64,000 nt of DNA, from NCBI GenBank assembly GCA_963843835.1, contig CAWJMD010000008.1, positions 388,043 through 452,042 on the forward strand, given 5' to 3'. The notes beneath the pieces were generated by a model. The model saw nothing but the letters and a program-made list of their open reading frames with translations. It made no database searches and was not told the DNA's origin. Source of the DNA: an uncultured Actinomycetota bacterium (GTDB lineage Bacteria; Actinomycetota; Actinomycetes; Actinomycetales; CAWJMD01). Shown one piece after another: positions 1,548-41,983 of the stretch (the first letter of the stretch is position 1; each line of letters opens with the position of its first letter). The position numbers were made by a program, and so were the translations under genes.

Positions 1548-2117
1548 CTACGCGCCGCCCGTCCTCGACCCGGCCTCGGCCGGCGCGGACGTCGCGAGGT
1601 CGAGCAGGGTCTCGCCCTCGAACGTGCCGAGGTCCTCGCGGTACAGCTCGATGCCGGACGCCGTTGGGGTCGCGGAAGTACATGCTCTCCTCGATCGCCG
1701 GCGTCGGGACCCGAGTACGCCATGCCCTGCTCGTCCAGGCGTGCGCGCAGCATGTCGTACTGCTCGCGCGGCACGCGAGATCGCGAGGTGCTGGATGCTG
1801 CCGACCGTCTCGGTGAACTCGGGATGGTCGTGCCCGGGAAAGTCGAAGAACCCCAACAGGTTGCCGTTGCCGAGGTCGAAGAAGAAGTGGCTGGAGCCGG
1901 CATAGTCGCGGTTCTCGACCAGCTCGACGAGGGGGAAGCCGAGCACCTCGGTGTAGAAGCGGATCGTCTCCTCGACGTCCTTGGCGATGAACGCGGCGTG
2001 GTGGATCCCGGCGGCGGTGGTGGTCGGGCGGTCCTCGCGTGGCCGCAGGTACCGCTCACGGATCTCGTCACGGCGGGTCCTGACGGCGTCCAGGTCGGCT
2101 CCAGTGGGCTGGGGCAT
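1548..2117 (-). pseudogene. VOC (glyoxalase/bleomycin-resistance/dioxygenase) family gene with three compensating frame shifts
   Basis: The 189-aa ORF has a VOC N-terminus (GIHHAAFIAKDVEETIRFYTEVLGFPLV, HFFFDLGNG) and C-terminus (GIELYREDLGTFEGE). The ~40 residues between them are Arg/Ala-rich nonsense. The expected motifs VPREQYDMLRARLDEQGMAYSGP and MYFRDPNG lie in the other two minus frames (ORFs 1478..2323 and 1282..1683). Shifts are near 1775, 1698 and 1655. Confidence 0.65.
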
Positions 2118-2118
2118 G

Positions 2119-3697
2119 TCAGGTGCTCCTCGCGGGGCTCGGCGGACGGCCGGCGCGGCCGGGGTCCCAGTCTGGCAGGGGCCCGTCGCGCCGCGACCTC
2201 AGGCGACGTGCGCCGGCGGCGGCCACGACGACGAGAGCAGCCACCGCCCAGCCCTGCCGGGCGGTGGTCAGGTCGTCGTGCAGCACGTACGCCCACCCCG
2301 CGGCGACGGGCACGGCGAGCCACTCAGGACGGCGTGCGAGGACCAGCAGCCCGACGAGGGGCAGCGAGTACCAGGGGTAGGCCGGGGTGGCCACGAGCAG
2401 TGCGGTCCCGAGCAGCCAGGTGGCGGTGTCCCACGGCCGCCGGGCGTCTGCCGTGCGCAGCGCGAGCGCCACAGCGACGGCTGCGACGACGAGCGCGATC
2501 GGCCACCGCGCAGCCAGCGGCACCGGCAGCAGCGCGATCACCCCGAACCGCGACCGGCCGTCGTCGAAGCCTTCCTCCACGACGTACGACGGCAGGTAGC
2601 CGAGCACAAGGGACCCGGCGACCAGCACGTGGGGCAGGTACGTGGCCGCCGCCGCCCCGACCGTGCCCAGCGGCACGAACAGCTGGCGCCGCGCGCCACC
2701 CGGAGCAGCGCGTCGCAGCACCGCGAGCGCCGGCAGCAGCAGCAGCGGCACCACCTTCGTCGCGACGGCCAGCCCGAGCAGGACGCCACCCACCACGCGG
2801 CCGCGCACCCGCTGGTCGAGCGCGAGCACGGCGCAGGCGCCGACGACCAGCGCGGTGGTCAGCACGTCGACGTGGGCGTTGTTGCCCGCCTCCACCGCGA
2901 CGACCGGCGACCAGCCCCACAGGGCGGCCCACCGCAGGTCCCGTCCGGTCCGCAGCAGCACACGACCGAGCAGGCCGGTCACTGCCACCGCGAGCGCCGC
3001 GGCTCCCAGCTGCAGCCCTGCCGTTCCGGCGCTCCACGGCGTCACCAGAGCGACCGCCGCGAACCAGGCCTGCGCGACCGGCGGGTAGATCGTGGGCACC
3101 TGCGGGCGGTTGACCGCGATCCGGTCGTCGTTGCGCGTCACCTGGCGCAGGGCCTTCGGGTCGGTGGGCAGGGGCCGGACGGTCCCGAGACCGCTGCTCT
3201 CGTCGGGACCCAGCCCGGGGAAGAGCAGCCGGGTCGCGGAGGGCGGCCAGCCGGTCGTCCGCCGGGGCGTAGCGGTACGGGGAGGTGCCGGAGAGCTGGA
3301 CCCTCCCGTCCCACACGTACCGGTAGGCGTCGGTGGACGTGAGGGGCGGCTGGGTGAGCCCGGGCACCTGGCAGGCGGCGGCGCCGAGCACCAGCACGGC
3401 CACGGCCAGCCCGCGGTGGCCGGCCGAGGGCCGCCTGCCCGACAGGCCCAGCGCCGCGGCGGCGGCGAACACCGCCCACGCGACGAGCCACCCGTAGGCC
3501 CACCCGCGAGGGTCGTCGGCCGCACTCCCCAGACGTGAGAGTCCGACCGACACCGTGACGCAGACCAGTCCGGCCGCGCCCCACCGCACGAGGGCACCCG
3601 TGTCTCGGCGGGTCGGGTCGCGGTCCGGCACGGCACCACCCTGCCTGCTCGCGGCAGCGGCGACGAGCGGGGGAGGCTCCGGACGGCGAGGCGTCAC
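2119..3697 (-). pseudogene. GT87/DUF2029-type polytopic membrane glycosyl(mannosyl)transferase, one apparent frameshift near 3229
   Basis: The N-terminal half is in ORF 2324..3871 (TDAYRYVWDGRVQLSGTSPYRYAPADDRLAALRDP). The C-terminal half is in ORF 2119..3639 (LLFPGLGP...NRPQVPTIYPPVAQAWF plus many TM segments). The join is cgc gac ccg [g] ctg ctc ttc. GTG 3697 is the proposed start. Confidence 0.65.
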
Positions 3698-3750
3698 GGT
3701 TTCGTCACCGCGGGCCCGGCCGGGAACCGCCTCGGTCTGCCTACGGTCGG

Positions 3751-5016
3751 GTGGTGTCGTCGATCCCGAAGCCCCTGGCGACCCTCGACCGCGAGGTCGG
3801 GCGTCGTGTCGACCGCCTGCGGAGCAGCCAGGCGCTGTCGTCACCGGTCCACGACGAGCGGGTGGCCGCACGCATCGGGGCGGTGCTGGGCCTGTGCTTC
3901 GTCATCTGCTTCGTCACCGGTGTCGTCAGCCACCTCCACCAGCACCCTGTCGCGTGGCTGCCGCTCGGCCCGAACCCGTCCTGGGGCTACCGGCTGAACC
4001 AGGGCCTGCACGTGGCCACAGGCCTTGCCTGCGTGCCGCTGCTGCTCGCGAAGCTCTTCGCCGTGTACCCGAACCTGCTCGCGTGGCCCCCGGTCCGGGG
4101 AGCGCTGCACGCCCTCGAGCGCACCTCGGTCGGGCTGCTGGTGGGCGCCGCGTTGTTCCAGGTGAGCACCGGCGTGATGAACATCTTCCAGTGGTACCCC
4201 TGGGGTTTCGGGTTCACCACCGTCCACTGGATCGTGGCGTGGGTGGCCATCGGGTCCGTGGTCCTGCACGTCGCGGTGCACCTGCCCGCGATCCGGCGGG
4301 GGCTCGCCACGCGCACGGACGCCGGACCGGTACGCCGGTCGTCGGCGGTCACCGAGTCCACCGAGTCCACCGAGACCGCCGGTCCGCGGTCGCCTGCTGC
4401 GATCGCCGACGCGGGGCGCACCCGTCGCGGCTTCCTCGTCGGCACCGGGCTGACGGTCGTCGCGGTCACGGTCGGCACGATCGGGCAGACCGTCGCGCCC
4501 TTGGGCTCCCTGGCCGTGCTGGCTCCCCGGCGCCCGGACATCGGCCCGCAAGGGCTTCCCGTCAACCGCTCCTCGGCCCAGGCAGGGGTCGGCACGTCGG
4601 CACTCGACCCCACCTGGTCGCTGGAGCTGGTCGGCCCCGACGGCAGCACGAGGCGCCTGGCCCGCGCCGCGCTGCTCGCGCTGCCGCAGCACCAGGCCGT
4701 GCTGCCCGTCGCGTGCGTCGAGGGCTGGAGCGCCAGCGCACGCTGGGGCGGGGTGCGCATCGCCGACCTGGTGGCGCTGTCGGGTGGTGGCACCGGCACC
4801 GCCGTCTCGGTCACGTCACTGGAGCAGCGGGGTGCCTACCGCCGGACGGAGCTGCCGGCCGCGTATGCCGCCCACCCCGACAGCCTGCTGGCGCTGCGCC
4901 TCGGCGACGAGGACCTCGACCTCGAGCACGGCTTCCCTGCGCGGATCATCGCGCCGAACCGTCCAGGGGTGCTGCAGACGAAGTGGGTCGCACGGCTCGA
5001 GGTAAGCCGTGGCTGA
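3751..5016 (+). CDS. molybdopterin-dependent oxidoreductase (sulfite-oxidase-like catalytic domain fused to N-terminal membrane domain)
   Basis: Intact 421-aa ORF. Has N-terminal TM helices with conserved His residues. The C-terminal part (VACVEGWSASARWGGVRIADL ... GFPARIIAPNRPGVLQTKWV) matches the oxidoreductase molybdopterin-binding fold. Confidence 0.8.
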   Translation: MVSSIPKPLATLDREVGRRVDRLRSSQALSSPVHDERVAARIGAVLGLCFVICFVTGVVSHLHQHPVAWLPLGPNPSWGYRLNQGLHVATGLACVPLLLAKLFAVYPNLLAWPPVRGALHALERTSVGLLVGAALFQVSTGVMNIFQWYPWGFGFTTVHWIVAWVAIGSVVLHVAVHLPAIRRGLATRTDAGPVRRSSAVTESTESTETAGPRSPAAIADAGRTRRGFLVGTGLTVVAVTVGTIGQTVAPLGSLAVLAPRRPDIGPQGLPVNRSSAQAGVGTSALDPTWSLELVGPDGSTRRLARAALLALPQHQAVLPVACVEGWSASARWGGVRIADLVALSGGGTGTAVSVTSLEQRGAYRRTELPAAYAAHPDSLLALRLGDEDLDLEHGFPARIIAPNRPGVLQTKWVARLEVSRG

Positions 5017-5482
5017 CGCACCGGTGGAGGGGGCCGCGCGGGCCGGCCGCGGAGCACGCCTGGCACGGCTGACGATCGGGGCGATCGGGCTGGCTGCGAT
5101 CACGGTGGGCCTGGTCCTGGCCGTGGTCGAGGTGCCGTCCGGCAGCAGGTTCGCGGTCGCGACGTGGCTCGTCGGCGGTCTCGTGGTGCACGATGCCGTG
5201 CTCGCTCCGGCGGCGCTGGTGCTGGGCGTCGTCGTTCTCGACCGCGTGCCTGCCGGCTGGCGTCCCGCCCTGCGGGCCGGGCTGCTGGGCGTCGGGTCGC
5301 TGGGGTTCCTGCTGGTCTGCCTCGTCGTGGCGACGGGGCTGAGGCGCAACCCCACGGTCCTGCCGCTCGACCCCGTCGTCGGGATGCTGGGTGCGCTCGC
5401 GCTGCTGTCCACGCTCGTGCTGCTGACGGCGGTGTGGACGGTTGACCGACGCCGGCACCGCGGCTCAGGCCGACTGGAGTGA
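5009..5482 (+). CDS. hypothetical integral membrane protein
   Basis: 157-aa ORF overlapping the upstream gene by 8 nt (coupled). Four or more hydrophobic segments. No family recognised. Confidence 0.6.
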   Translation: MADAPVEGAARAGRGARLARLTIGAIGLAAITVGLVLAVVEVPSGSRFAVATWLVGGLVVHDAVLAPAALVLGVVVLDRVPAGWRPALRAGLLGVGSLGFLLVCLVVATGLRRNPTVLPLDPVVGMLGALALLSTLVLLTAVWTVDRRRHRGSGRLE

Positions 5483-6716
5483 CCGCGCCGCGAGCAGCAC
5501 ACGCTGCGCGGCCCGCCACTCCTCGACGACGCTGAAGTCGTGGCGGACCAGCAGGTCCGTGAGGGCGCGGGCGCCCAGCCGCGCCCACGGGATCGGGGTG
5601 CTGGTCCGGCCGTCCTCGGCGCGCAGGACGACCCGGTCCCTGCTGTCGGCGTCGTCGTCGGGGTCGGCCTCGACGAGCAGCAGGCCACCGGGCCGCAGCA
5701 GGTCACGGCAGCGGTCCAGGATCGCATGGGGATCGCCGCCGATGCCGATGTTCCCGTCGGCGAGAAGTACCGTTCCCCAACGGCCTTCACCGGGCAGCCG
5801 GTCCTGGACGCGGCGCCTCAGCACGCAGGCACCGCGACGCGTCGTCAGCTCGACCGCGACCGACGACACGTCCACGCCGAGGGCGGCCAGGCCTCGTTCC
5901 GATGCCGCGGACACCAGACGCCCTGGGCCGCAACCGATGTCGATGACCGGTGTTTCGCAGCGACTGATCATCAGGTCGTCCACGTCGTCGGTGGGACCGG
6001 CCCACCGTGCCGCGTCGAGGGGCGTGTGGCGGCCCTGGTCGTCGACGAGCACCTGCTGTCCGGCGAGTGCCTCGTCGAACAGCACGAGCGGGTGCACGCG
6101 GCGAGCCGTCGTCTGCACCAGCCGTCGGTGGGTCGCCGCGAACCGGGTGCCGGGGTTGGCCCGCGCGACCTCGTCGGCGTCCTCCGGGGTGTCGACGTCG
6201 AGCAGCTCGGGCAGCAGCCGTACCCGCAGTCCGAGCCGCCGCAGTCGGTCGAGCTGGTCGGCTCCCGTGTGCGCGGTCGACATCGGCACGCCAACCATGG
6301 CGTCGGCCACCGGCCGGCGGAAGCCGATCGCCCAGTACCCCCCGTCGGCGCTGAGACCGAGCACCGCGTCGGCGCCCTCCCAGTCGACGTCCAGCAACGC
6401 CGGGGTGAGCTGGGGGGTGTCCATGCCGACGAGCAGCATCGGGCCGTGGCCCTCGACCGCGGCCGCGTCCTCGAACGCGGCCGCGAGCCGCTCGTCGAGC
6501 CCGTCCCCGCGCTGGGTCAGCACCTCGAAGCCCGCCGGCACCCAAGGGCCCGCGGACCCGTCCAGCACCAGGACCCGGCGGACGACGGGGAGCGATGCGA
6601 CGACGTCGAGGGTGTCGCCCAGGGCGGCAGCCGCGAGCTCACCGGCCTGGTCCGGGGTGAACCGTGCTCTGCAGCCGCGTCTTGACACGTCCGGGCAGCG
6701 GCTCCTTGGCGATCAC
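5465..6716 (-). pseudogene. DUF2064 (TIGR04282-like) domain fused to class I SAM-dependent methyltransferase; apparent frameshift near 6665
   Basis: ORF 5465..6688 has the DUF2064 core (LLVGMDTPQLTP, GLSADGGYWAIGF) followed by a methyltransferase (VIDIGCGPGRL, LLRPGGLLLV). The family N-terminus LLVIAKEPLPGRVKTRLQ sits in another frame, at the end of ORF 6639..7550. GTG 6716 is the tentative start. Confidence 0.6.
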
Positions 6717-6784
6717 CAGCAGCGTGCCCGTCCGTTCGGGCGGGCGACCGGCCGAGCGGTGGGCCGGCCGCCAGAGACGTCGCC

Positions 6785-7509
6785 TCACGACGCCAGCACC
6801 CGGCTCATGTCGCGCACGGCCCGGGCCGCGCCGAGCAGGGGTGCCGGTGACCTTCGACCGTCCCGAACGGGGCAGGTAGGCGACGTCGACCTCGCCGCAC
6901 GCGCCAGCCCGCGTCGGCGGCGGCGACGAGCATCTCCAGCGGGTAGCCCGACCGCCGGTCGGACAGGCCGCAGTCCGACCAGGGCATCGCGCCGGGCCGC
7001 GCGCATCGGGCCGAGGTCGTGCACCCGCACGCCCGGTGCGGCGGTGGATCCGACGGCACAGCTCGCGGTTCGCCAGCCGCAGGTGCCACGGCCACGCGCT
7101 GCGGCGTCGTCGGACGACGACGGCCCAGCACCAGGTCGGCCGTCCCTGTCGACCACGGGGTCGACGACCGCGCCCGAGGTGGCGGCGGGTCGAGTGAGCC
7201 GTCCGCGTCCATGAAGGCCACCACGTCGGCCGTCGCGGCCTCGAGACCGCGCGCGCACGCGGAGCCGAACCCCCGGACGGGAGCGACCACCACGGTGGCA
7301 CCCAGCCCGGCGGCGACGTCCGCCGAGCCGTCGACCGACCCGTTGTCCACGACGATCGCCCGATAGCCCTCGGGTATCCGTCCGAGCACCCACGGCAGGG
7401 CCTCGGCCTCGTCGAGGCACGGCAGCACCACGTCGACCGGCGCCTGCCGCTCCCCGTCCGGTCCGCCTGGCACGGGCCAGACGCTAGGCCCGGTCGGGGC
7501 ACCGGGCAC
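6785..7509 (-). pseudogene. family 2 glycosyltransferase (TIGR04283-like), about 8 frame shifts in its 3' half
   Basis: The N-terminal part is intact in ORF 6805..7824 (VDVVLPCLDEAEALP...AIVVDNGSVDGS...VAFMDADGSLDP). After that, recognisable segments hop between the three minus frames in this order: RHLG, AVVDPVV, TGTADLVLGRRRPTTPQR, SAWPWHLRLANRELCRRIHRRTG, VRVHDLGPMRAARRDALVGL, GLSDRRSGYPLEMLVAAADAGWRV, GEVDVAYLPRSGRSKVTGT, LLGAARAVRDMSRVLAS. The start (GTG 7509 or 7473) is uncertain. Confidence 0.65.
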
Positions 7510-7594
7510 CTCGAAGCGACGATGACGGTTCGTTGACGTGACCGGTCCACCGCCGGCAGAGCGGGCCGGCGGGGCCACCGGCGTCCGTAGGGTG

Positions 7595-8317
7595 ATGAGC
7601 GTGAGCGCCCGCGTGCTGATCGTCGAGGACGACCGCACGGTGTCCGACGTCGTGCAGGCGTACCTCAGCCACGCCGGCCTCGAACCGCGGGTGGTCGACG
7701 ACGGGATGGACGGTCTCGACGCCTGGCGCACGTGGAAGCCCGACCTCGTGGTCCTCGACCTCATGCTCCCGACCCTGGACGGGCTGGAGGTGCTGCGCCG
7801 CGTCCGGGCGGACGGTGACCGCACGCCCGTCGTGGTGCTGTCAGCGCGCGGCGACAGCGAGGACCGTGTGATCGGGCTCGAGGTCGGCGCGGACGACTAC
7901 CTGGCCAAGCCCTTCAGCCCGCGTGAGCTGCTGCTGCGCGTGCAAGGGCTGCTGCGCCGCGACGAGCGGCTGCGGCGCGCCGACCTGCTGCCCCGCCAGC
8001 TCGCGCGGGGCCCGCTCGCGATCGACACGGTCGCGCGGGCCGTGACGCTGCGCGGCGAGCCGCTGTCGCTGACGCAGCGCGAGTTCGACCTGCTCGTGTT
8101 CCTGGTGGACCACCCGGGTGAGGCCTTCGGCAAGCGCGACCTGCTGCGCCGTGTGTGGGGATGGGACTTCGGGGACACCTCGACCGTCGCCGTGCACGTG
8201 CGGCGGGTCAGGGAGAAGGTGGAACGGGACGCCTCGGACCCGCGCCTCGTGGTGACGGTCCGCGGCACGGGGTACAGGTTCGCCACCGACGCCGAGCTCG
8301 AGGGAGGGAGCACATGA
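7595..8317 (+). CDS. OmpR/PhoB-family response regulator
   Basis: Receiver domain (RVLIVEDD, DLVVLDLMLP, KPF) plus winged-helix DNA-binding domain (LTQREFDLLVFL, TVRGTGYRF). ATG 7595 preferred over the ORF start at 7538. Confidence 0.9.
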   Translation: MSVSARVLIVEDDRTVSDVVQAYLSHAGLEPRVVDDGMDGLDAWRTWKPDLVVLDLMLPTLDGLEVLRRVRADGDRTPVVVLSARGDSEDRVIGLEVGADDYLAKPFSPRELLLRVQGLLRRDERLRRADLLPRQLARGPLAIDTVARAVTLRGEPLSLTQREFDLLVFLVDHPGEAFGKRDLLRRVWGWDFGDTSTVAVHVRRVREKVERDASDPRLVVTVRGTGYRFATDAELEGGST

Positions 8318-9487
8318 CCGGGGCTCTGCTGACGGTGCTGGTGCTGACCATCGCCTCGTGCCTGGCCACGGGGCTGGTCGGCGTCGTGGTCCTCCGGGCG
8401 ATGCGCCGCCGCCCGATCACGGTCGTCCTCGTGATGGCCGTGCTCGTGCCGGTCGTCGCCGTCGCCGTGTCGGTCGTCGTCAACGTGCAGGCGATGTTCA
8501 TCTCGGTGCACGACTCGCAGGTCATGCTCGCCGCACTCGGTGCGGCACTCGTGACCGCGGTCGTGCTCGCCGTCGTCGTCGGTCGCTGGCTGGTCGCCGG
8601 GTCCCGGGCGGTAGGACGGGGACTGCAGGTGCTGGGCGCCGAGGAGGGAGCCGTCGTCGTCGAGGGCGGACCGTGACGACCTCTCGCCGAACCTGGCCCT
8701 CCCCGCCGAGCTGGCCGCCCTGGACCACGAGCTGAGGGCCACGAGGCAGCGGCTGGACGCGGCTCGGGCGCGGGAACGAGGTCTGGAGGCGAGCCGGCGC
8801 GAGCTGGTCGCGTTCCTCTCGCACGACCTGCGGACCCCGCTCGCCGGTCTGCGGGCGCTGGCCGAGGGGCTCGAGGACGGGGTCGTCGACGACGTGCCCG
8901 CGGCGCTCGCCCAGGTGCGCTCGTCCGTCGACCGGATGAACGGTCTGGTCGACGACCTCTTCGAGCTCTCCCGGCTGAGGGCCGACGGCGGACCGAGCGT
9001 GCGCTCGCTGGTCAGCCTGCGCGAGGTGGCCGAGGACATGGCCCGGGAGTGCGAGGAGCAGGCGCGCGCCTCGGGAGTGAGCCTGTGCGTCGAGGCGGAC
9101 GACAGGCTAGCGGTGCACGGCGTGCCCGAGGATCTGGCGCGGGCCCTCTCGAACCTCATCTCGAACGCGCTCCGCCACACCCGCTCCGGTGGTGAGGTGC
9201 TCGTGCGAGGTGCCCGGGACGCCGACGGCCGCGTCGTGCTGGCCGTGGTCGACGGCTGCGGGGGCATTCCCGCGCAGGACCTCGACCGCGTCTTCGACAC
9301 GGGCTGGCGCGGGGACCCGGAGCGGACACCCGGCGACGGGCGGGCGGGCCTCGGGCTGGCGATCGCCCGCGGTGTCGCGGAGTCGCACGCGGGCTCGCTC
9401 GAGGTGGCCAACACCAGTGAGGGGTGCCGCTTCGAGCTGGTGCTGCCCGCCGCGCCGGCCACGGACCGGCGCCTGGTCACCGGCTGA
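8314..9487 (+). pseudogene. sensor histidine kinase, reading frame broken at 8674
   Basis: ATG 8314 overlaps the regulator's stop (ATGA). The TM/sensor part ends at TGA 8674-8676. The next frame continues directly with DDLSPNLALPAELAALDHEL...LVAFLSHDLRTPL (H-box) and the HATPase domain of ORF 8894..9487 (NLISNALRHT, DGCGGIP, GLGLAIA). Removing T8674 restores one ORF. Confidence 0.7.
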
Positions 9488-13428: not shown

Positions 13429-14886
13429 CTACAGCGGGATGTTGCCGTGGGCGCCCCGCCGCGCGGGAGCGTCGGCGATGGCACGTGCGAGGGCCGTGCG
13501 GGTCTCCTGGGGTGTGACCACCTCGTCGACCACGCCGATCTGGACGGCGCGGTCCAGCCCACCGGCCATGCGCTCGTGCTCGACGGCCAGCTCGGACTCG
13601 ACCTGCGCCCTGGCGTCGTCGGGCACCTCGGCCAGCTTGCGGCGGTGCAGGATCCGCACGGCGGCGACCGCGCCCATCACCGCGACCTCGGCGCCCGGCC
13701 ACGCGAAGACACGGGTCGCCCCGAGCGAGCGCGAGTTCATCGCGATGTACGCGCCGCCGTAGGTCTTGCGCGTCACCAGGGTCACCCGCGGCACGGTCGC
13801 CTCGGCGAAGGCGTGCAGGAGCTTGGCGCCGCGGCGCACGACGCCGTCCCACTCCTGGCCGACGCCGGGCAGGTAGCCGGGGACGTCGACGAGGACGACA
13901 AGCGGCACGCCGAACGCGTCGCACATGCGCACGAAGCGCGCGGCCTTCTCGGCCGACGACGAGTCCAGGCACCCGCCCAGTCGCAGCGGGTTGTTGGCGA
14001 CGACGCCCACGGTGCGCCCACCCAGGCGCCCCAGGGCGGTGACGATGTTCGGCGCCCACTTGGGGTGCAGCTCGATGGCGCCACCCGCCTCGGTCGAGCC
14101 GAGGGGGGCGTCGAGCAGCTCGTCGATGATCGGGTGGACGTCGTACGCCCGCTTGAACGACTCCGGCATGTGGGCCGCGAGGTCGCGGTCCGGCAGGCCG
14201 GGGTCGATCTCGCCCTGGCCGCCGAGCAGCACCGTGATCGCGCGGGCGCGGTCGTAGGCGGCGTCGGTGGACTCGGTCACCACGTGCACGACGCCCGAGC
14301 GGCGGCCGTGCGGCTCGGGACCGCCGAGACGCAGGGCGTCGACGGCCTCGCCGGTGACCGACCGGACCACGTCCGGGCCCGTGACGAAGATGCGGCCGTC
14401 GGGACCGAGGATGACGATGTCGGTGAGCGCCGGCCCGTAGGCGGCGCCACCGGCGGCGGGGCCGATCACGACCGAGATCTGCGGGATCTTGCCGGAGGCC
14501 CGGGTCATGATCGCGAAGACCTCGCCGACGGCGTGCAGCGACACGACGCCCTCACGCAGCCGGGCGCCGCCGGAGTGCCAGAGGCCGACCACGGGGACGC
14601 CGTCGGCCAGCGCACGCTCGTAGGCGACGAGGATGACCTTGCACCCGTCCACGCCCATCGCGCCGCCCTGGATGGTGGCGTCGGAGGCGAAGGCGACGGC
14701 GGCCACCCCGTCGACCGTGCCGGCCGCGGCGAGCATGCCCGAGTCGTCCTGCTCGGTGAGGAGCTCGACGGTGCCGTCGTCGAAGAAGTGCTCGAGGCGC
14801 AGCAGGGGGTTGCGCGGGTCGGTCGCGGGGTCCACCGGCGTACGGCCGGCGGACACGGCCGCCGCACCCTGCCCGGCGGGACTCAT
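13429..14886 (-). CDS. acyl-CoA carboxylase carboxyltransferase (beta) subunit, AccD6-like by context
   Basis: 485-aa ORF with carboxyltransferase motifs (GGAMGVDGCKVI, VVGLWHSGGARLREG, SVVIGPAAGGAAYGPALTD, GGAYIAMNS). It is the last gene of the fab operon. Confidence 0.9.
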   Translation of the reverse strand: MSPAGQGAAAVSAGRTPVDPATDPRNPLLRLEHFFDDGTVELLTEQDDSGMLAAAGTVDGVAAVAFASDATIQGGAMGVDGCKVILVAYERALADGVPVVGLWHSGGARLREGVVSLHAVGEVFAIMTRASGKIPQISVVIGPAAGGAAYGPALTDIVILGPDGRIFVTGPDVVRSVTGEAVDALRLGGPEPHGRRSGVVHVVTESTDAAYDRARAITVLLGGQGEIDPGLPDRDLAAHMPESFKRAYDVHPIIDELLDAPLGSTEAGGAIELHPKWAPNIVTALGRLGGRTVGVVANNPLRLGGCLDSSSAEKAARFVRMCDAFGVPLVVLVDVPGYLPGVGQEWDGVVRRGAKLLHAFAEATVPRVTLVTRKTYGGAYIAMNSRSLGATRVFAWPGAEVAVMGAVAAVRILHRRKLAEVPDDARAQVESELAVEHERMAGGLDRAVQIGVVDEVVTPQETRTALARAIADAPARRGAHGNIPL

Positions 14887-16133
14887 CGGACGCTCCGGAA
14901 CGCGACGGCCACGTTGTGCCCGCCGAAGCCGAACGAGTTGTTCAGCGCGACACCCGGCCCGATGTCGCGCGGCTTGTCGGAGACGACGTCGAGGGTGATG
15001 GCGGGGTCCTTGTCGGTGATGTTGGTGGTGGGCGGCGCCTGGCCGTGGTGCAGCGCGAGGATCGACAGGATCCCCTCGACGGCGCCGGCGGCACCGAGCA
15101 GGTGGCCGGTCATCGACTTCGTCGCGGAGACGGCGACCCGGTCGACGTGCTCGCCGAGCACAGCCGAGATCGCTGCGGACTCCGCGATGTCGCCGGCCGG
15201 AGTGGACGTGGCGTGGGCATTGATGTGCACGAGCTCATCGAGGCCGATGCCGCCCTTCTCGAGCGCCGAGCGCATCGCCCGGGTCGCCCCCAGGCCCTCC
15301 GGGTCGGGGGCGGCGATGTGGTGGGCGTCCGAGGTCAGGCCGGCGGACACCAGCTCCGCGTAGATCCGGGCGCCGCGAGCCTCCGCGTGCTCGGCCGACT
15401 CCAGCACGACCACGCCGGCGCCCTCGCCGAGCACGAAGCCGTCGCGGCTCGTGTCGTACGGGCGCGAGGCCGTCTCGGGGCTGTCGTTGCGGGTCGACAG
15501 GGCGCGCATCGAGGCGAACCCGGCGATCGGCAGCGGGTGGATGGCCGCCTCGGTCCCGCCGGCCATCACGACGTCGGCGCGGCCGGTGCGGATCATGTCG
15601 AGCGCGTACGCCATGGCCTCGGCGCCGGACGCGCACGCCGACACGGGGGAGTGGGCGCCGGCACGGGCACCGAACTCGATGGCCAGGGCACCGGCGGCAC
15701 CGTTGGGCATGAGCATCGGCACGGTCATCGGCAGGACGCGGCGCGGGCCCGACTCCTTGAGCACGTCGTAGGCGTCGAGGAGCGTCCACACGCCGCCGAT
15801 GCCGGTGGCGATGACCATGCCGAGCCGCAGCGGGTCGACGTCCGGGCTGCCGGCGTCGGCCCAGGCCTCGCGGCCGGCGACCATCGCGTACTGGCCCGAG
15901 GGGTCGAGCTTCTTGGCCTCGTGGCGTGGCATCACGTCGGCCGTGGGCACCTCGAGCCGGCACGCGAAGTGCACGGACAGGTCGTAGCGCTCGAGCCACT
16001 CCGCAGGGAGCGCCTTCGCGCCCGACCGGCCGGCCAGGGCCGCCTCCCAGGTGCTGGGCACGTCCCCGCCCAGAGGGGTGGTCGCCCCCATTCCGGTGAC
16101 GACGACGCGACGGTCGGTGGACGGGCTGCTCAT
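14883..16133 (-). CDS. fabF: beta-ketoacyl-ACP synthase II (KasA/FabF type)
   Basis: 416 aa. Active-site context SACASGAEAM, HATSTPAGD and GHLLGAAG. A 4-nt overlap couples it to the carboxyltransferase gene. Confidence 0.9.
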   Translation of the reverse strand: MSSPSTDRRVVVTGMGATTPLGGDVPSTWEAALAGRSGAKALPAEWLERYDLSVHFACRLEVPTADVMPRHEAKKLDPSGQYAMVAGREAWADAGSPDVDPLRLGMVIATGIGGVWTLLDAYDVLKESGPRRVLPMTVPMLMPNGAAGALAIEFGARAGAHSPVSACASGAEAMAYALDMIRTGRADVVMAGGTEAAIHPLPIAGFASMRALSTRNDSPETASRPYDTSRDGFVLGEGAGVVVLESAEHAEARGARIYAELVSAGLTSDAHHIAAPDPEGLGATRAMRSALEKGGIGLDELVHINAHATSTPAGDIAESAAISAVLGEHVDRVAVSATKSMTGHLLGAAGAVEGILSILALHHGQAPPTTNITDKDPAITLDVVSDKPRDIGPGVALNNSFGFGGHNVAVAFRSVR

Positions 16134-16163
16134 CGCGGTGGCCTCCAGGTGCCGGGGTGGTGC

Positions 16164-16200
16164 GGGTGACCCGACCGGCCGGTGGGCCGGCGGGTCACCC
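16164..16200 (-). other. intercistronic stem-loop between ACP and KAS genes (GGGTGACCC ... GGGTCACCC with nested CCGGCC/GGCCGG)
   Basis: Inverted repeat read directly from the sequence, within the 127-nt acp-kas spacer. Confidence 0.55.
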
Positions 16201-16217
16201 GGTTGGTGCTGGGTACA

Positions 16218-16244
16218 GCGGGTGGTGCGGGTGGTGCGGGTGGT
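16218..16244. repeat. 3 tandem copies of the 9-nt unit GCGGGTGGT
   Basis: Read directly: gcgggtggt gcgggtggt gcgggtggt gca. It lies in the non-coding spacer downstream of the ACP gene. Confidence 0.8.
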
Positions 16245-16260
16245 GCAAGAGCCTGTGTGG

Positions 16261-16509
16261 TCAGCCCTGCGCCTGCTGGACGTAGGCGACGACGTCGCGG
16301 ACGGTCGAGAGGTTCTTGATGTCCTCGTCCGGGATCTTCACGCCGAACTTGTCCTCGGCCTGCACGACGATCGAGGTCATCGACAGCGAGTCGATGTCGA
16401 GGTCCTCGGTGAAGGACTTGTCGAGCTCGACGGACTCGGTCGGCAGACCGGTCTCCTCGTTGACCAGCTCGGCGATGCCCTGGAGGATCTCCTGCTCGCT
16501 CTGCGCCAT
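16261..16509 (-). CDS. acpP: acyl carrier protein
   Basis: 82 aa with the phosphopantetheine attachment motif LDIDSLSM. Confidence 0.95.
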   Translation of the reverse strand: MAQSEQEILQGIAELVNEETGLPTESVELDKSFTEDLDIDSLSMTSIVVQAEDKFGVKIPDEDIKNLSTVRDVVAYVQQAQG

Positions 16510-16628
16510 GGTTGGAACTCCTTCTGCTGTCGGTGTCCTCGGTGAGAACCCTGCGTGGTGACTACTCGGTGGACGATCGGACGGTGGTGCGTCCCGCCGG
16601 GGCGGGAGTCAGTGGGGCGGTCGCGACC

Positions 16629-17630
16629 CTAGGGCAGCTCGACCACCTGGGCGGCGTACGCGAGGCCGGCGCCGAACCCGATCAGCAGGGCGAGGCCTCC
16701 GTGCGGCGCGCTGCCGTCGGCGAGCATGCGGTGCATCGCGAGCGGGATCGACGCCGCCGAGGTGTTGCCGGTCTCGGCGATGTCGCGGGCGACCGGCACG
16801 TGCTCGGGCAGACCGAGCTGCTTGACCATCGCGTCGATGATGCGGACGTTGGCCTGGTGGGGGATGAACGCCGCCAGGTCGTCCGGCGTGATGCCCGCCG
16901 CCTCGATGGCCTTGCGGGCCACCGGCGCCATCTGCCAGACCGCCCAGCGGAAGACGCTCTGTCCCGCCATGCGCAGGGTGGGCCACTCGAGCTCAGGGTC
17001 GTCGCGCAGCTGGTCCCACGACTGGTTCTGGGTGATGACGTCCCACATGTTGCCGTCGCTGCCCCAGAGCGTGGGGCCGATGCCCGGGGTGTCGGACGCG
17101 CTGACGACGACGGCGCCCGCGCCGTCGCCGAAGATGAACGCGCTGGAGCGGTCGCGGGGGTCGGTGATCTCCGAGAGCTTCTCCACGCCGATGACGAGCA
17201 CGTGGCGGGCCGAGCCACCGCGGACCATGTCGCTGGCCAGGCCGACGCCGTGGCAGAAGCCCGCGCAGGCCGCTGAGATGTCGAACGCGGCGGCCGGGGT
17301 GGCGCCGAGCCGGTGGGCGACCAGTGGTGCGGCAGCGGGGGTCTGGTACAGGTGCGTCACGGTCGCGACGAGGACGACGTCGATGTCGGCCCCGGTCAGC
17401 CCGGCGTTCGCGATCGCCTCGGCACCGGCGGCCTCGCCCATGTCGACGACGGTCTGGCCGGGCGCGGCCCAGCGACGCGTCACGATACCGGAGCGCTCGC
17501 GGATCCACTCGTCGGAGGAGTCGATGTACTGGCAGATCTCCTCGTTGGTGACGACGCGCTCGGGGCGGTAGGCGCCGACGCCGGTCAGCCGGGCGTGAGC
17601 AGCGCCCGTGGGCGTGACGAGGCCGGTCAT
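16629..17630 (-). CDS. fabH: beta-ketoacyl-ACP synthase III
   Basis: ATG 17630 within track ORF 16629..18065. Motifs DISAACAGF (Cys), IPHQANVRI (His) and GNTSAASIP (Asn). The ATGA overlaps the fabD stop. Confidence 0.9.
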   Translation of the reverse strand: MTGLVTPTGAAHARLTGVGAYRPERVVTNEEICQYIDSSDEWIRERSGIVTRRWAAPGQTVVDMGEAAGAEAIANAGLTGADIDVVLVATVTHLYQTPAAAPLVAHRLGATPAAAFDISAACAGFCHGVGLASDMVRGGSARHVLVIGVEKLSEITDPRDRSSAFIFGDGAGAVVVSASDTPGIGPTLWGSDGNMWDVITQNQSWDQLRDDPELEWPTLRMAGQSVFRWAVWQMAPVARKAIEAAGITPDDLAAFIPHQANVRIIDAMVKQLGLPEHVPVARDIAETGNTSAASIPLAMHRMLADGSAPHGGLALLIGFGAGLAYAAQVVELP

Positions 17631-18814
17631 GACGAGCTCCCGGCGGGGTGGAGCCGCAGCAGGGGCTGGCCGGGGGAGACGGGGTCGCCCTCCTCCACCA
17701 GCCACTCCACGACCGTGCCGCCGTGCTGGGCGCGCACGTCGTGCCCGTCGCGCAGGCCCTCGACGCGGGCTACCACGCTGCCTGCCACGACGTCGTCGCC
17801 GGCGCCGGCGGCGGTCAGGAGCCGGACGGCACCCTTGGCGGGCGCCACGACCAGACGCCACGTCGGCGAGCTCTGCAGAGGACTGCCGACGCCGTGGCGC
17901 TCGACCATGTCGCGCGCCGTGTCGAGGTCGGCCGGCGTCTTGAGCGCGAGCGTCTCGACCCCGGGCAGCGCCCGCTTGGCGAGGTTGGTCAGCGTTCCGG
18001 CCGGCGGGATCTCGATCAGGCCGGTCACGCCGAGCTCGGCGAAGGTCTGCATGCAGAGGTCCCAACGCACCGGGTTGCTCACCTGGGTGACGAGGCGCTT
18101 GAGGACGTCGCGACCGTCGTGGACGACGGTGCCGTCGGCGTTGGACAGCAGCAGGGCCCGCGGGTCGTGGGTCGACATCGCCCGCGCGTGGCGGCCGAGC
18201 ACGTCGACGGCCGGCGACATGTGCCGGGTGTGGAAGGCGCCGGCGACCTGGAGCGGGATGACGCGGGCCTTGGCCGGCGGCTCGTCCGCCAGCGCGGCCA
18301 GCTCGTCCATGGTGCCGGCGGCGACGACCTGGCCGGCCCCGTTGACGTTGGCCGGGGTGAGTCCGTGCTTGTCGAGGGCCGCGAGCACCTCGTCCGGGTC
18401 GCCGCCCACGACGGCGCTCATGCCGGTCGGCGTGACCGCGCTGGCCCCGGCCATCGCCCGTCCGCGCTCGCGCACGAAGACCATGGCCTGCTCGGCGCTG
18501 ATCACGCCGGCCGCCGACGCGGCCGTGATCTCACCGACGCTGTGACCGGCTCCGCCCGCGATCACCGCGAAGGCGTCGGCGGGGTGGGGGAACAGGGCGA
18601 GGAGCGACACGAGGCCGGCGCCCACGATGAGGGGCTGCGCCACGGCGGTGTCGCGGATGGTGTCGGCGTCGGAGGTGGTGCCGTGCGCGACGAGGTCGAG
18701 ACCGGCGACGGTCCCGAGCCAGTCGAGACGCTCACGGAAGCCCGGTACCTCCAGCCACGGGGAGAGGAAGCCGGGGCTCTGGGACCCCTGGCCGGGGCAG
18801 ACGATGACGAGCAC
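17627..18814 (-). CDS. fabD: malonyl-CoA:ACP transacylase with ~85-aa C-terminal biotinyl/lipoyl-like domain
   Basis: GTG 18814 preceded by GGAAGGTGGAG. FabD motifs CPGQGSQ, GHSVGE and the AGAFHT region. An extra C-terminus follows: WRLVVAPAKGAVRLL...VVARVEGLRDGHDVRAQHGGTVVEWLVEEGDPVSPGQPLLRLHP. Confidence 0.85.
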   Translation of the reverse strand: MLVIVCPGQGSQSPGFLSPWLEVPGFRERLDWLGTVAGLDLVAHGTTSDADTIRDTAVAQPLIVGAGLVSLLALFPHPADAFAVIAGGAGHSVGEITAASAAGVISAEQAMVFVRERGRAMAGASAVTPTGMSAVVGGDPDEVLAALDKHGLTPANVNGAGQVVAAGTMDELAALADEPPAKARVIPLQVAGAFHTRHMSPAVDVLGRHARAMSTHDPRALLLSNADGTVVHDGRDVLKRLVTQVSNPVRWDLCMQTFAELGVTGLIEIPPAGTLTNLAKRALPGVETLALKTPADLDTARDMVERHGVGSPLQSSPTWRLVVAPAKGAVRLLTAAGAGDDVVAGSVVARVEGLRDGHDVRAQHGGTVVEWLVEEGDPVSPGQPLLRLHPAGSSS

Positions 18815-25595: not shown

Positions 25596-25668
25596 GGGCC
25601 TGTAGCTCAGTTGGTAGAGCACCGCGTTTACACCGCGGGCGTCGTCGGTTCGAGCCCGGCCGGGCCCA
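25596..25668 (+). tRNA. tRNA-Val (anticodon TAC)
   Basis: Folded by hand as a cloverleaf: acceptor GGGCCTG/CGGGCCC, D arm GCTC-AGTTGGTA-GAGC, anticodon stem CCGCG/CGCGG with loop TTTACAC, T arm GTCGG-TTCGAGC-CCGGC. CCA is not encoded. Confidence 0.9.
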
Positions 25669-25699
25669 CTCACCCCCTGCGCGTCGATAGGGTCGTCCG

Positions 25700-26900: not shown

Positions 26901-27644
26901 GTGACCACCGCGAACCCGCTCGACCAGGTCCGTCTGCTCGACGTGCAGGCGCTCGACACGCGCCTGCGCCAGCTCTCGCACAAGGGCACGTCCCTGCCTG
27001 AGCACGCGCGCCTCACCGCGCTGGAGGCCGAGGTGGCCGCCCTGCGGGACCGGGTCGTGGTGGCCCGGACGACTGTCAGCGACATCCAGCGCGAGCTGCG
27101 AAAGTCCGAGACCGACGTCGAGCAGGTGCGTTCGCGGGCCCAGCGCGACCAGTCCCGCCTCGACGCCGGCCAGGGCTCGGCGAAGGACCTGCAGGCGATC
27201 CAGCACGAGCTGGGTTCGCTGGCACGACGCCAGGCCGAGCTGGAGGACGTCGAGCTCGAGGTGATGGAACGGCTGGAGACGGCCCAGAACGAGGCGGAGG
27301 CGCTCGCCGAGCAGCTCGAGCGGCGCCAGGCCGAGGTCGCCGAGGTGACGGCCTCCCGCGACGCCACCCTGGCGGAGATCGGCGACGAGGCGGCCAAGGT
27401 CACGGCCGAACGTGACGGCGTCGCCGCAGGACTCGACCCTGCGCTGGTGGCCCTCTACGAGAAGATCCGCGCCGGTTCGGGCGGCGTCGCCGCCGCCGCG
27501 CTCAAGGCGAAGCGCTGCGAGGGCTGCCGGATGGAGCTCACGGCCAGCGACCTCGGGCGCATCCGGTCCGCCCCCGACGACGAGGTGCTGCGGTGTGACG
27601 AGTGCCGCTGCATCCTCGTGCGCACGTCGGAGTCGGGGCTGTGA
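26901..27644 (+). CDS. zinc-ribbon/coiled-coil protein (DUF164-type, C4 zinc ribbon)
   Basis: Long coiled-coil, then CEGCRMEL...LRCDECRCIL. It follows Nif3, as in many bacteria. Confidence 0.8.
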   Translation: MTTANPLDQVRLLDVQALDTRLRQLSHKGTSLPEHARLTALEAEVAALRDRVVVARTTVSDIQRELRKSETDVEQVRSRAQRDQSRLDAGQGSAKDLQAIQHELGSLARRQAELEDVELEVMERLETAQNEAEALAEQLERRQAEVAEVTASRDATLAEIGDEAAKVTAERDGVAAGLDPALVALYEKIRAGSGGVAAAALKAKRCEGCRMELTASDLGRIRSAPDDEVLRCDECRCILVRTSESGL

Positions 27645-32411: not shown

Positions 32412-32817
32412 GCGGACGAGCCAACCGGGCGGCCGCGTCGAGATCCTGGAGACAGGGGCTCGCCGAGGAACGTCCGGGCTCCGCAGGGCAGGGTGGTGGG
32501 TAACACCCACCCGGGGTGACCCGCGGGACAGTGCCACAGAGAACAGACCGCCACGGCGGGGCCGTCGAGAGGCGGCGCCGGCGCGGCAAGGGTGAAACGG
32601 TGGTGTAAGAGACCACCAGCACCTCCGGTGACGGAGGTGGCTCGGTAAACCCCACCCGGAGCAAGGTCAGACAGGAAGCGTCCGAGGGCTGCCCGCCCGA
32701 GCTTCCGGGTAGACCGCTGGAGGCGTGCGGCAACGTACGTCCTAGATGGATGGTCGCCACCCGCCACCGGGTGACCGGTGCGGGGACAGAACCCGGCGTA
32801 CAGGTTGGCTCGTCCGC
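32412..32817 (+). ncRNA. rnpB: RNase P RNA, bacterial type A
   Basis: P1 pairing GCGGACGAGCCAACC / GGTTGGCTCGTCCGC. Conserved blocks GAGGAACGTCCGGGCTCC, ACAGTGCCACAGAGAAC, GGTGAAACGG, GGTAAACCCCACC and ACAGAACCCGGCGTACAG. Confidence 0.9.
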
Positions 32818-32991: not shown

Positions 32992-33780
32992 ATGCGACAG
33001 CGAGTGGTGCTGGCCCCGCGCAATGCGGGTGAGGCGGTGGCAGTGGCGGTCTCCGCCGTGCTGATCGCCGGCAGCGTCGTCGCCGTCATCCAGCGCGACA
33101 CCCCGCAGCCCCAGCCCGTGCCCGCGTCGGTCGTCGCCACCCGTGACGTCCGCACCGTCTCCACGCCCGGGCAGATGGATCGGGTCGAGATCGGCGTGGA
33201 CGGATCCCGCCTGCCTCGCGTCCCCGTCTTCGTCGAGGAGGCCCCCAAGGTCCTCGCGAACCCCATCACCCGGCAGGTCGGCCCGCGCACGCAGCAGCGG
33301 TCCACGAACCCCTCGGCGAGCGCGCCCCTGCTGGAGGGCCTCGGGCCGTCCCAGCCGGTACCGACCCCGAGCGGCGTGAGCATCGTGCAGGACTTCCCGG
33401 TGCCGCTCCCGCCCGCGTCGACCGCGACCCCCTCGGAAACGCCCTCGAGCAGCCCGACGACGACCACGCCGACGACCGCGCCGACGTCGCCCGCGTCGAC
33501 CACATCGGCCTCCCCCGCGGCGACCACGCCGCCACCGGCCCCGTCTCCCAGCGGGACTCCTGCGTCCTCGCCGACGACCAACGCCTCGCCGGCGCCGGAG
33601 GGGACTCCGGCGACGGGTTCGTCCTCGGTGCTGCAGACCCCGCCGGCGACGGCGGTGCCGCCGCCGAGCGCGTCGCCCACGCCGGCGCCGCCGCCGGGAA
33701 CGGCTCCGACTCCCCAGGGCGGGGCGCCGTCCGGTGGAGGGATGGGCGAGCCGACGCCCCAGTCGTCGTCCGGCAACTGA
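32992..33780 (+). CDS. membrane-anchored Pro/Thr/Ser-rich protein
   Basis: ATG 32992. One N-terminal TM segment (AVAVAVSAVLIAGSVVAVI) and a long low-complexity PTS-rich C-terminus. Confidence 0.6.
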   Translation: MRQRVVLAPRNAGEAVAVAVSAVLIAGSVVAVIQRDTPQPQPVPASVVATRDVRTVSTPGQMDRVEIGVDGSRLPRVPVFVEEAPKVLANPITRQVGPRTQQRSTNPSASAPLLEGLGPSQPVPTPSGVSIVQDFPVPLPPASTATPSETPSSSPTTTTPTTAPTSPASTTSASPAATTPPPAPSPSGTPASSPTTNASPAPEGTPATGSSSVLQTPPATAVPPPSASPTPAPPPGTAPTPQGGAPSGGGMGEPTPQSSSGN

Positions 33781-40127: not shown

Positions 40128-41907
40128 TCAGCTGTCCTGCTCGCGCCAGCGGCTGGTGACGGGGAGCCGGCGGTCGCGTCCGAACGCGATGCGGCTGATC
40201 TTCGGGCCCGGGGCGAACTGCCGCCGCTTCCACTCGGCGCGGTCGACCAGGCCGACGACGCGGTCGACCACGTCGGCGTCGAAACCGGCCTCGAGCAGCT
40301 CCGACCGGCCCTCGGCGCCGACGACGTACCGCTCGAGCACGGCGTCGAGCAGCTCGTAGGGCGGGAGCGAGTCCTGGTCGACCTGGCCCGGGGCCAGCTC
40401 GGCTGACGGGGGTTTGGTGATGGAGCTCTCCGGGATCGGCGGCTTCTCGCCGGACTTCTCGGCCCGGGCGTTGCGCCACCGCGCCAGCTCCCAGACCAGC
40501 GTCTTCGGCACGTCCTTCAGCGGTGCGAAGCCGCCGACGGAGTCGCCGTAGATCGTCGAGTACCCGACCGCCAGCTCGCTCTTGTTGCCCGTCGCCAGGA
40601 CGAGGTGGCTCTCCTGGTTCGAGATGCCCATCAGGATCGCGCCGCGCACGCGGGCCTGGAGGTTCTCCTCCGCGACCCCGGTCAGCTTCAGCTCGTCGAG
40701 GTAGGTCGCCACCACGGCGCCGATCGGCTGCACCCGGTAGTCGACGTCCAGCCCGCTCCGCCAGGTCGGCGGCGTCGTCCCTGGAGTGCTCGGACGAGTA
40801 CTTGCTCGGCATCGACACCCCGACGACGTTCGGGCCGCCGACCGCGTCGGCGGCGACCGCCGCGACCAGCGCCGAGTCGATGCCGCCGGAGAGCCCGAGG
40901 ATCACCGACGAGAAGCCGTTCTTGCGCACGTACTAGCGCAGACCGACGACGAGCGCCTGGTAGACCTCCTCGACGGGGTCCAGGCGCGGTGCGCACGGTG
41001 CGGGCATGCGGGTCGTAGGCGGCCACCGGCTCGTCGGAGACCACGGTCAGCTCGACCGACCCCGTCGCCGCGTCGGTGTCCAGGCGCGACTCCGGCAGGT
41101 CGAGGTCGACCACGATCAGCTCCTCGGCGAACTGCGCGCCGCGCGCCAGCACCTCGCCGTCCGGCGACGACGACGACCGAGTCGCCGTCGAAGACGAGGT
41201 CGTCCTGCCCGCCCACGAGGTTGAGATACGCCAGCGTGGCCTCCGCCTCGGCCGCGCGGCGGCGCACCAGCGCGAGCCGGGCGTCGTCCTTGTCCTGCTC
41301 GTAGGGGGAGCCGTTGAGCACCAGCAGCAGCTCCGCGCCGGCCTCGCGGGTCATCGCCACCGGGCCGCCGTCCTGCCAGAGGTCCTCGCAGATCCCGAGG
41401 GCGACGTCGACCCCGGCGACGCGCACCACGTGCAGCCGCTGCCCGGGCACGAAGATGCGGAACTCGTCGAAGACGCCGTAGTTGGGCAGGTGGTGCTTCG
41501 CGTAGCGCGTCGCCATCTCGCCCCGGTGCAGCACCGCGGCGCAGTTCTGCGGCATGCCCTTCGGGATGCCGGTCTCCCCGTCCTCGCTCACGCCGTCGCC
41601 GTCGAGGTCCGCGTCGGTCCCCTCCGCGCGGTCGAGGTAGCCGACCACGACGGGGGTCCCGCCGAAGCCCGTCCGCCGCCAGGTCGCGCGCCAGCTCGGC
41701 GATCGCGGCCCGTGAGGCGTCGACGAAGGAACGGCGCAGGGCGAGGTCCTCGACCGGGTAGCCGGTCAGCACCATCTCGGGGAAGGCGACCAGGTGCGCA
41801 CCGGCCTCGACGGCCTTGGCCGTCCAGGTCCTGACCAGTGCTGCGTTGGCCGCCAGGTCACCCACCGTGGGGTCGACCTGGGCCAGGGCGAGTCGCAGCT
41901 GCGGCAT
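40128..41907 (-). pseudogene. nadE: glutamine-dependent NAD+ synthetase, 4 frame shifts plus in-frame TAG
   Basis: Recognisable segments are spread over track ORFs 41116..41907 (CN-hydrolase N-terminus), 40902..41648, 40688..41152, 40087..40929 (SGGIDS PP-loop) and 40128..40733. Shifts are near 41669, 41163, 41008 and 40753. TAG at 40933-40935 interrupts EEVYQALVVGLR*YVRKNGF. Confidence 0.75.
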
Positions 41908-41983
41908 GCCCGGAGCCTAGTGCCGCCCTCCTGCTGGCAGACTTCGGGCAGGACGGGACGACCACCAGGACCGAAGGGGTGCC

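Follow-up and report, generated by a model that had tools for sequence, protein, structure and literature searches.

Serial +1 frame hops in a GT2 glycosyltransferase gene of an uncultured actinobacterium are very probably spurious consensus insertions

Introduction

Genes whose reading frame changes along their length are known from several quite different settings. Programmed +1 frameshifting, as in prfB and in Euplotes, takes place at a defined site that is conserved in orthologues, and there is usually one such site per gene. Real gene decay of the Mycobacterium leprae type is marked by many substitutions, stop codons, an elevated dN/dS and an excess of deletions; in bacteria generally, indels are about tenfold rarer than substitutions and are usually deletion-biased. 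Many pseudogenes recorded in databases are assembly errors, depending on platform, assembler and coverage (Cooley & Wright 2024, PMC11017572). Nanopore bins of low coverage, below about 40-fold, still need polishing (Sereika et al. 2022, PMC9262707), and frameshift errors and truncations are commoner in soil nanopore than in HiFi assemblies (Benoit et al. 2026, PMC13087279). Here we analyze a gene for a GT2 glycosyltransferase that changes frame eight times, in a stretch of 64,000 nucleotides of actinobacterial DNA (73% G+C) that we refer to as the window.

Results

Eight single-base insertions account for the frame hops of the GT2 gene

In a three-frame translation of positions 7560..6600, the GT2-like N-terminus (VDVVLPCLDEAEALPWVLGR...AFMDADGSLDP) stays in one frame. 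After DADGSLDP, recognizable peptide blocks rotate through the three frames, in the order GAVVDPVVD, ADLVLGRRRPTT, SAWPWHLRLANRELCRRIHRRTG, VRVHDLGPMRAARRDALVGL, SDRRSGYPLEMLVAAADAGWRV, EVDVAYLPRSGRSKVTGT and LGAARAVRDMSRVLAS, the last followed by the stop. The same block order and frames were recovered by tblastn of the orthologues P0001, P0002 and P0003 against the window. P0001 is encoded by contig L001 (contig_12652 of the ENA metagenome ERZ25039476, 2.07 Mb), and a global DNA alignment of the window (7480..6785, minus strand) with L001:10001-10681 revealed exactly eight 1-nt insertions in the window, with neither deletions nor further frame-changing differences in this alignment (Table 1). 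Minus these eight bases, the gene comprises 681 nt, equal to 226 codons and a TGA that coincides with the stop of the orthologue; the encoded protein finishes with AVRDMSRVLAS. The repaired gene has no internal stop codons, and its product aligns with the 226-aa P0001 gap-free over the whole length at 88% identity. The start codon is likely GTG 7473; an in-frame alternative, GTG 7509, equals the upper coordinate given in a preliminary description of the locus.

That description had reported a clean 5' half followed by eight recognizable blocks in a strict sequence, with a move to the next frame at each block, which when joined give a plausible complete C-terminus ending in AVRDMSRVLAS. The absence of any frame change in 7473..7186, the three-frame translation and the tblastn searches with intact orthologues bear this out, as does the gap-free alignment of the repaired protein. 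Alignment to the orthologues, including the DNA alignment with L001, reproduced the block order that it had deduced, the eight successive frame changes all being +1, and the shift positions that it had estimated (7188, 7178, 7150, 7098, 7032, 6970, 6897 and 6839) all fall within 9 nt of the aligned ones. It had also called this the densest disruption in the window, which agrees with our count of 8 of about 18 events within 349 nt of the 64 kb (Poisson P ~2e-13).

Table 1. Coordinates of the GT2 gene, its inserted bases and other genes of the window (contexts of inserted bases on the gene strand, inserted base in brackets)
Feature	Position	Strand	Remarks
GT2 glycosyltransferase gene	6785..7473	-	689 nt as assembled; 681 nt, 226 aa minus 8 inserted bases
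GT2 stop codon TGA	6787..6785	-	
GT2 block 0, residues 1-96 (VPGGPDG...AFMDADGSLDP)	7186..7473	-	holds DAD (DxD) motif; no frame change
Inserted base 1, C	7185	-	GACCCG[C]CGCCAC; position good to a few nt
Inserted base 2, G	7175	-	CACCTC[G]GGCGCG; block RHL between sites 1 and 2
Inserted base 3, G	7141	-	AGGGAC[G]GCCGAC; after block GAVVDPVVDRD
Inserted base 4, G	7105	-	GACGAC[G]CCGCAG; after block ADLVLGRRRPTT; not a homopolymer extension
Inserted base 5, C	7031	-	ACCGGG[C]GTGCGG; after block RSAWPWHLRLANRELCRRIHRRTG; not a homopolymer extension
Inserted base 6, G	6971	-	CGGACT[G]CGGCCT; after block VRVHDLGPMRAARRDALVGL
Inserted base 7, G	6896	-	GCGTGC[G]GCGAGG; after block GLSDRRSGYPLEMLVAAADAGWRV
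Inserted base 8, T	6837	-	CACCCC[T]GCTCGG; after block REVDVAYLPRSGRSKVTGTP; then last block LGAARAVRDMSRVLAS and stop
DUF2064 (TIGR04282-like, sub-threshold) + methyltransferase fusion	5465..6788	-	start overlaps GT2 stop codon
GT87-type (GT-C) membrane glycosyltransferase, same cluster	2134..3589	-	one +1 insertion ~3230
Response regulator of divergent two-component system	7601-8317	+	intact
Histidine kinase of divergent two-component system (7601..9487)	8314-9487	+	net +1 shift ~8666-8686
Glyoxalase-family gene	1596..2100	-	+1 insertions 1775, 1695, 1653, together restoring frame
NAD+ synthetase (NadE)	40131..41919	-	four +1 hops near 41670, 41161, 40983, 40750

Four of the eight inserted bases do not extend a homopolymer, and no motif is common to the eight insertion contexts. 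Neither tandem repeats nor homopolymer tracts were found in 6600-7600, and there is no compositional anomaly, the GC content being 75-78% across the GT2 region, like that of the flanks. Phase variation and repeat slippage were therefore rejected for want of tandem repeats, and since there is no shared motif either, a programmed shift site is disfavored together with them.

The repaired protein is a GT2 glycosyltransferase

In a protein search, the joined blocks matched thousands of intact GT2 proteins, 210-232 aa in length. P0001 (226 aa, 88% identity) ranked first, at an E-value of 1e-113 that excludes chance, followed by proteins of Kribbella and other actinobacteria with ~70-80% identity. 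All of the more than 300 orthologues listed are single ORFs of 210-232 aa. Among the genome-contig matches listed for the repaired protein, no relative exceeded 77% identity, and a degenerate pattern spanning the site at 7031, with 0 or 1 extra base, retrieved no independent copy of the locus from metagenome contigs.

The repaired protein matched Pfam PF00535 with 71.9 bits (cut-off 23.3) over profile positions 2-164 of 168, compared with 48.5 bits over positions 2-93 only for the uncorrected ORF. The DxD motif is present as AFM-DAD-GS in the clean 5' block (DAD, residues 89-91) and is conserved in P0001-P0006. These matches confirm the assignment to GT2 in the preliminary description; its "TIGR04283-type" label, which denotes an arsenosugar-type GT paired with TIGR04282, did not stand, as the repaired protein scored 34.3 bits against a cut-off of 182, with residues 15-102 alone matching. 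The best NCBIfam matches were AglJ (75.2 against a cut-off of 325), dolichyl-phosphate hexose transferase (68 against 375) and PpgS (47.6 against 370), all of them far below the equivalog cut-offs; judged by these scores, the resemblance to polyprenyl-phosphate sugar synthases does not go beyond the superfamily. Among solved structures, ArnC (9hwj, E = 4.5e-7) and DPMS (5mlz, E = 3.4e-6) come closest. Enzymes of the GT87 (GT-C) class use polyprenyl-phosphate sugars. Together, the nearest structures and the GT87 neighbor suggest that the repaired GT2 is a putative polyprenyl-phosphate sugar synthase that may feed this membrane glycosyltransferase.

The broken half of the gene bears no mark of relaxed selection

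We compared the broken 3' half of the GT2 gene with its clean 5' half. Relative to L001, pN was 0.066 in the broken and 0.058 in the clean half, dN/dS was 0.17 and 0.12, and nucleotide identity was 86.4% and 85.9%, respectively; GC3 was 0.94 and 0.92. There was thus no sign of relaxed selection in the broken half, with dN/dS and GC3 little changed, and the excess of non-synonymous substitutions amounted to only ~2. Given that bacterial indels are about tenfold rarer than substitutions, a stretch of 390 nt that had gathered eight neutral indels would be expected to have tens of extra substitutions as well. Furthermore, there is no deletion among the eight events, each of them being a +1 insertion (P = 0.004 even in the absence of any bias), and the first 288 nt, the 5' 42% of the gene, are free of events (P ~0.012 under an even spread).

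Similar insertions occur in other genes of the window

Frame hops were sought across the window with a codon-usage frame HMM and by homology, and only hops confirmed by homology were counted. With a high switching penalty the HMM labelled the broken GT2 half "non-coding", and with a lower penalty it recovered seven of the eight GT2 switches but made many false calls at gene ends. One HMM switch, at ~33408 in a low-complexity ORF rich in Pro, Thr, Ser and Ala (33029-33708, plus strand), may be either an error site or a compositional effect.

In total, the window counts ~18 insertions and no deletions. The downstream DUF2064 gene (TIGR04282 score 96.1 against a cut-off of 134) has a ninth +1 insertion at ~6665 (CAGAGC[A]CGGTTC), 120 nt past the GT2 stop, so the error patch crosses the gene border; the lesion pattern is that of a positional patch of ~520 nt (6665-7185), not of a dead gene. 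In NadE, the five blocks when joined align end to end with PDB 3n05 (590 aa; query 3-591, chain 4-583, E = 2.5e-210). The gene for this essential, glutamine-dependent enzyme serves as a control: frame hops are not confined to GT2. For the glyoxalase gene we used a three-way alignment with L001 and a third relative, L082 (contig_2990 of ERZ25039516, 4.65 Mb), in which L001 and L082 agree against the window, both being without the three insertions.

Most other genes of the window are intact, for example those for AceE, FabD, FabH, KasA, AccD, GlnA, GlnE and Map; these proteins were named from their translations, FabH alone being confirmed by Pfam. The window also encodes a full-length bacterial class A RNase P RNA (32417-32816, plus strand, 282.9 bits) and a tRNA-Val (25596-25669). 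A 96-nt tRNA-Ser call (27417-27512), made by ARAGORN alone and lying inside a coding region, is probably a false positive.

The GT2 gene lies in a block that is missing from one relative

L001 has the same gene order as the window: a divergent response regulator and histidine kinase, GT2, a DUF2064-methyltransferase gene overlapping the GT2 stop, and GT87. Between the DUF2064 gene and GT87, the window contains two further genes (3737-5432, plus strand) that are absent from L001; one has an Oxidored_molyb domain and an N-terminal cytochrome-b-like membrane part, and the other encodes a small membrane protein. At the syntenic site of L082, a block of ~8.5 kb (window 2.1-10.7 kb) is absent, and we therefore regard it as an accessory island. 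This variable envelope-glycosylation island comprises GT87, the molybdopterin oxidoreductase with the membrane protein, the DUF2064-methyltransferase, GT2, the response regulator, the histidine kinase and an epimerase, and four of its genes carry frameshifts (GT87, DUF2064-methyltransferase, GT2 and histidine kinase).

L001 carries its own set of frameshifts in indispensable genes

Actinobacteria cannot make fatty acids without FabH, KasA and AccD. Three-way alignments showed that all three genes are disrupted in L001 and intact in both the window and L082: FabH of L001 has three single-base insertions, KasA has eight insertions and two deletions over ~1 kb, and AccD has four insertions, which over the three genes (L001 1-4130) makes 15 insertions and two deletions, all single-base. 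What had appeared to be three deletions in the window within FabH and AccD was rejected on this basis, as these are insertions in L001. The FabH product of L001 reads as nonsense at residues 165-229 and has lost half of its ACP_syn_III_C domain, which is complete in FabH of the window. KasA is not called as a gene in L001, where a spurious antisense ORF (L001 1831-2475) is called instead.

Because these genes are indispensable, their lesions in L001 must be errors. In character they match the GT2 cluster, being single-base, insertion-dominated and clustered. Moreover, the lesions are private to one assembly, L001 showing a private set of its own that is absent from the window and L082. The accession numbers ERZ25039476 and ERZ25039516 are 40 apart, and both assemblies have contig_N names and Mb-scale contigs. 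The proteins of the window all lie on a single contig of 1,339,117 bp; the window appears to be the same kind of long-read metagenome product as L001 and L082.

A separate observation concerns the identity between window 13430-17640 and L001, which is ~92-95% at the nucleotide level over FabH, KasA and AccD and 81-89% over their neighbors. These three genes may be under stronger constraint, or they may lie in a recombination tract.

Discussion

The eight frame hops of the GT2 gene are, with high confidence, spurious consensus or assembly insertions and not biology. The preliminary description had left the cause open, and the evidence points to the assembly artefact that it had listed as a refuting outcome, because insertion-only hops are also found in NadE of the window and in FabH, KasA and AccD of L001, and because signs of neutral decay are missing from the broken half. 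The artefact itself, like the sequencing technology behind it and its local cause, be it low coverage or a mixture of strains, is something that we infer rather than observe directly. Among the points against it, insertion-only errors without an excess of substitutions differ from the textbook profile of raw long reads. The insertion-only spectrum points instead to a polishing or consensus step.

Could the insertions be real? The gene might be a genuine recent pseudogene in an accessory island that is being lost, with eight actual +1 insertions in GT2. The block is absent from L082 and hence dispensable in the clade, frameshifts affect four of its genes, and a clustering of lesions in one dead gene is what decay produces. 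Because the block is an accessory island, we retain this explanation, but we consider it unlikely, since the expected tens of extra substitutions contrast with a non-synonymous excess of ~2 and a dN/dS that stays at 0.17, and since eight out of eight events are 1-nt insertions, with no nonsense codons and with the 5' 42% of the gene untouched. Furthermore, identical lesions are present in NadE and in the conserved glyoxalase gene, both outside the island, and similar ones in the essential genes FabH, KasA and AccD of L001, where decay is not credible. Loss of the island through real insertions that arise by an unusual, strongly insertion-biased and locally clustered kind of mutation, for example in one error-prone repair-synthesis tract, is more improbable still. 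If true, a few hundred bases would have received numerous +1 insertions while being spared substitutions, and the insertions would then be evidence of a clustered +1 mutational process that has not been described. Programmed recoding, in which serial +1 ribosomal frameshifts or transcriptional slippage would leave the gene functional as written, fits with all shifts being +1 and with the final frame ending at the orthologous stop codon. However, the eight sites have no slippery or shifty-stop motif in common, none is followed by a 0-frame stop, there are no repeats or homopolymer tracts, and the shift occurs in 0 of the more than 300 orthologues listed. In addition, eight serial events of limited efficiency would leave almost no product, and the same hops appear in unrelated genes and at other places in L001. 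Recoding of GT2 is thus effectively excluded.

A further possibility bears on how the spurious bases came about. The locus may be heterogeneous, such that the consensus merges two co-existing strains and both alleles of neighboring SNPs are written out as extra bases. Half of the inserted bases do resemble an alternative base beside the original one (e.g. CC[T]G, GG[C]G), the errors come in patches, and mixed strains are common in soil metagenomes. A merging of strains would, however, be one form of the artefact and no biological rival to it; we hold it to be possible but rather doubtful, and what likelihood it has is a share of that given to the artefact and does not add to it.

If the hops are indeed an artefact, a noisy, most likely long-read, metagenome-derived assembly would have given rise to spurious single-base consensus insertions, and the eight insertions in GT2 would sit in a patch of ~520 nt that was locally poorly polished. 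In the organism, the GT2 gene would then most probably be one intact ORF of 226 codons. Its product would be a soluble GT2 enzyme, by type a polyprenyl-phosphate sugar transferase, and the gene lies in an accessory envelope-glycosylation cluster (GT2, DUF2064-methyltransferase and GT87) beside a two-component system.

The insertion-error patches in the window and L001, and probably in other members of the submission series, mimic multi-frameshift pseudogenes, and claims of pseudogenes, gene loss or recoding made from these assemblies need read-level confirmation. Other "disruptions" flagged in the window call for the same caution. There is no new biological feature in this locus; the value of the observation is practical, and its biological value is small.

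How the locus relates to described systems depends on which of its properties is considered. As in programmed +1 frameshifting of prfB or in Euplotes, the frame moves by +1 and the conserved protein continues in the frame that follows, but here there are eight unrelated sites and none is conserved in orthologues. Pseudogenes of the Mycobacterium leprae type likewise show several frameshifts in one recognizable gene, with neighbors also affected; unlike in that kind of decay, GT2 has no substitution load, raised dN/dS, stop codons or deletion bias. With respect to its predicted function, the repaired GT2 resembles ArnC, dolichol-phosphate mannose synthase, PpgS and AglJ in its full PF00535 domain and DAD motif, and it is clustered with a GT87 (GT-C) enzyme, a class that uses polyprenyl-phosphate sugars. 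In contrast to ArnC and DPMS, it is only 226 aa long and is without C-terminal membrane helices.

Compared with the classical nanopore case, a homopolymer indel that is often a deletion, the events described here are nearly all insertions (insertions to deletions 18:0 in the window, 15:2 in L001), homopolymers are not involved in about half of them, and the clustering is strong, with 8 in 349 nt. In other respects the locus is like the spurious pseudogenes of long-read or low-coverage assemblies (PMC11017572, PMC9262707, PMC13087279): single-base indels split conserved genes, essential ones included, the lesions differ between close assemblies, and repair restores full-length homology.
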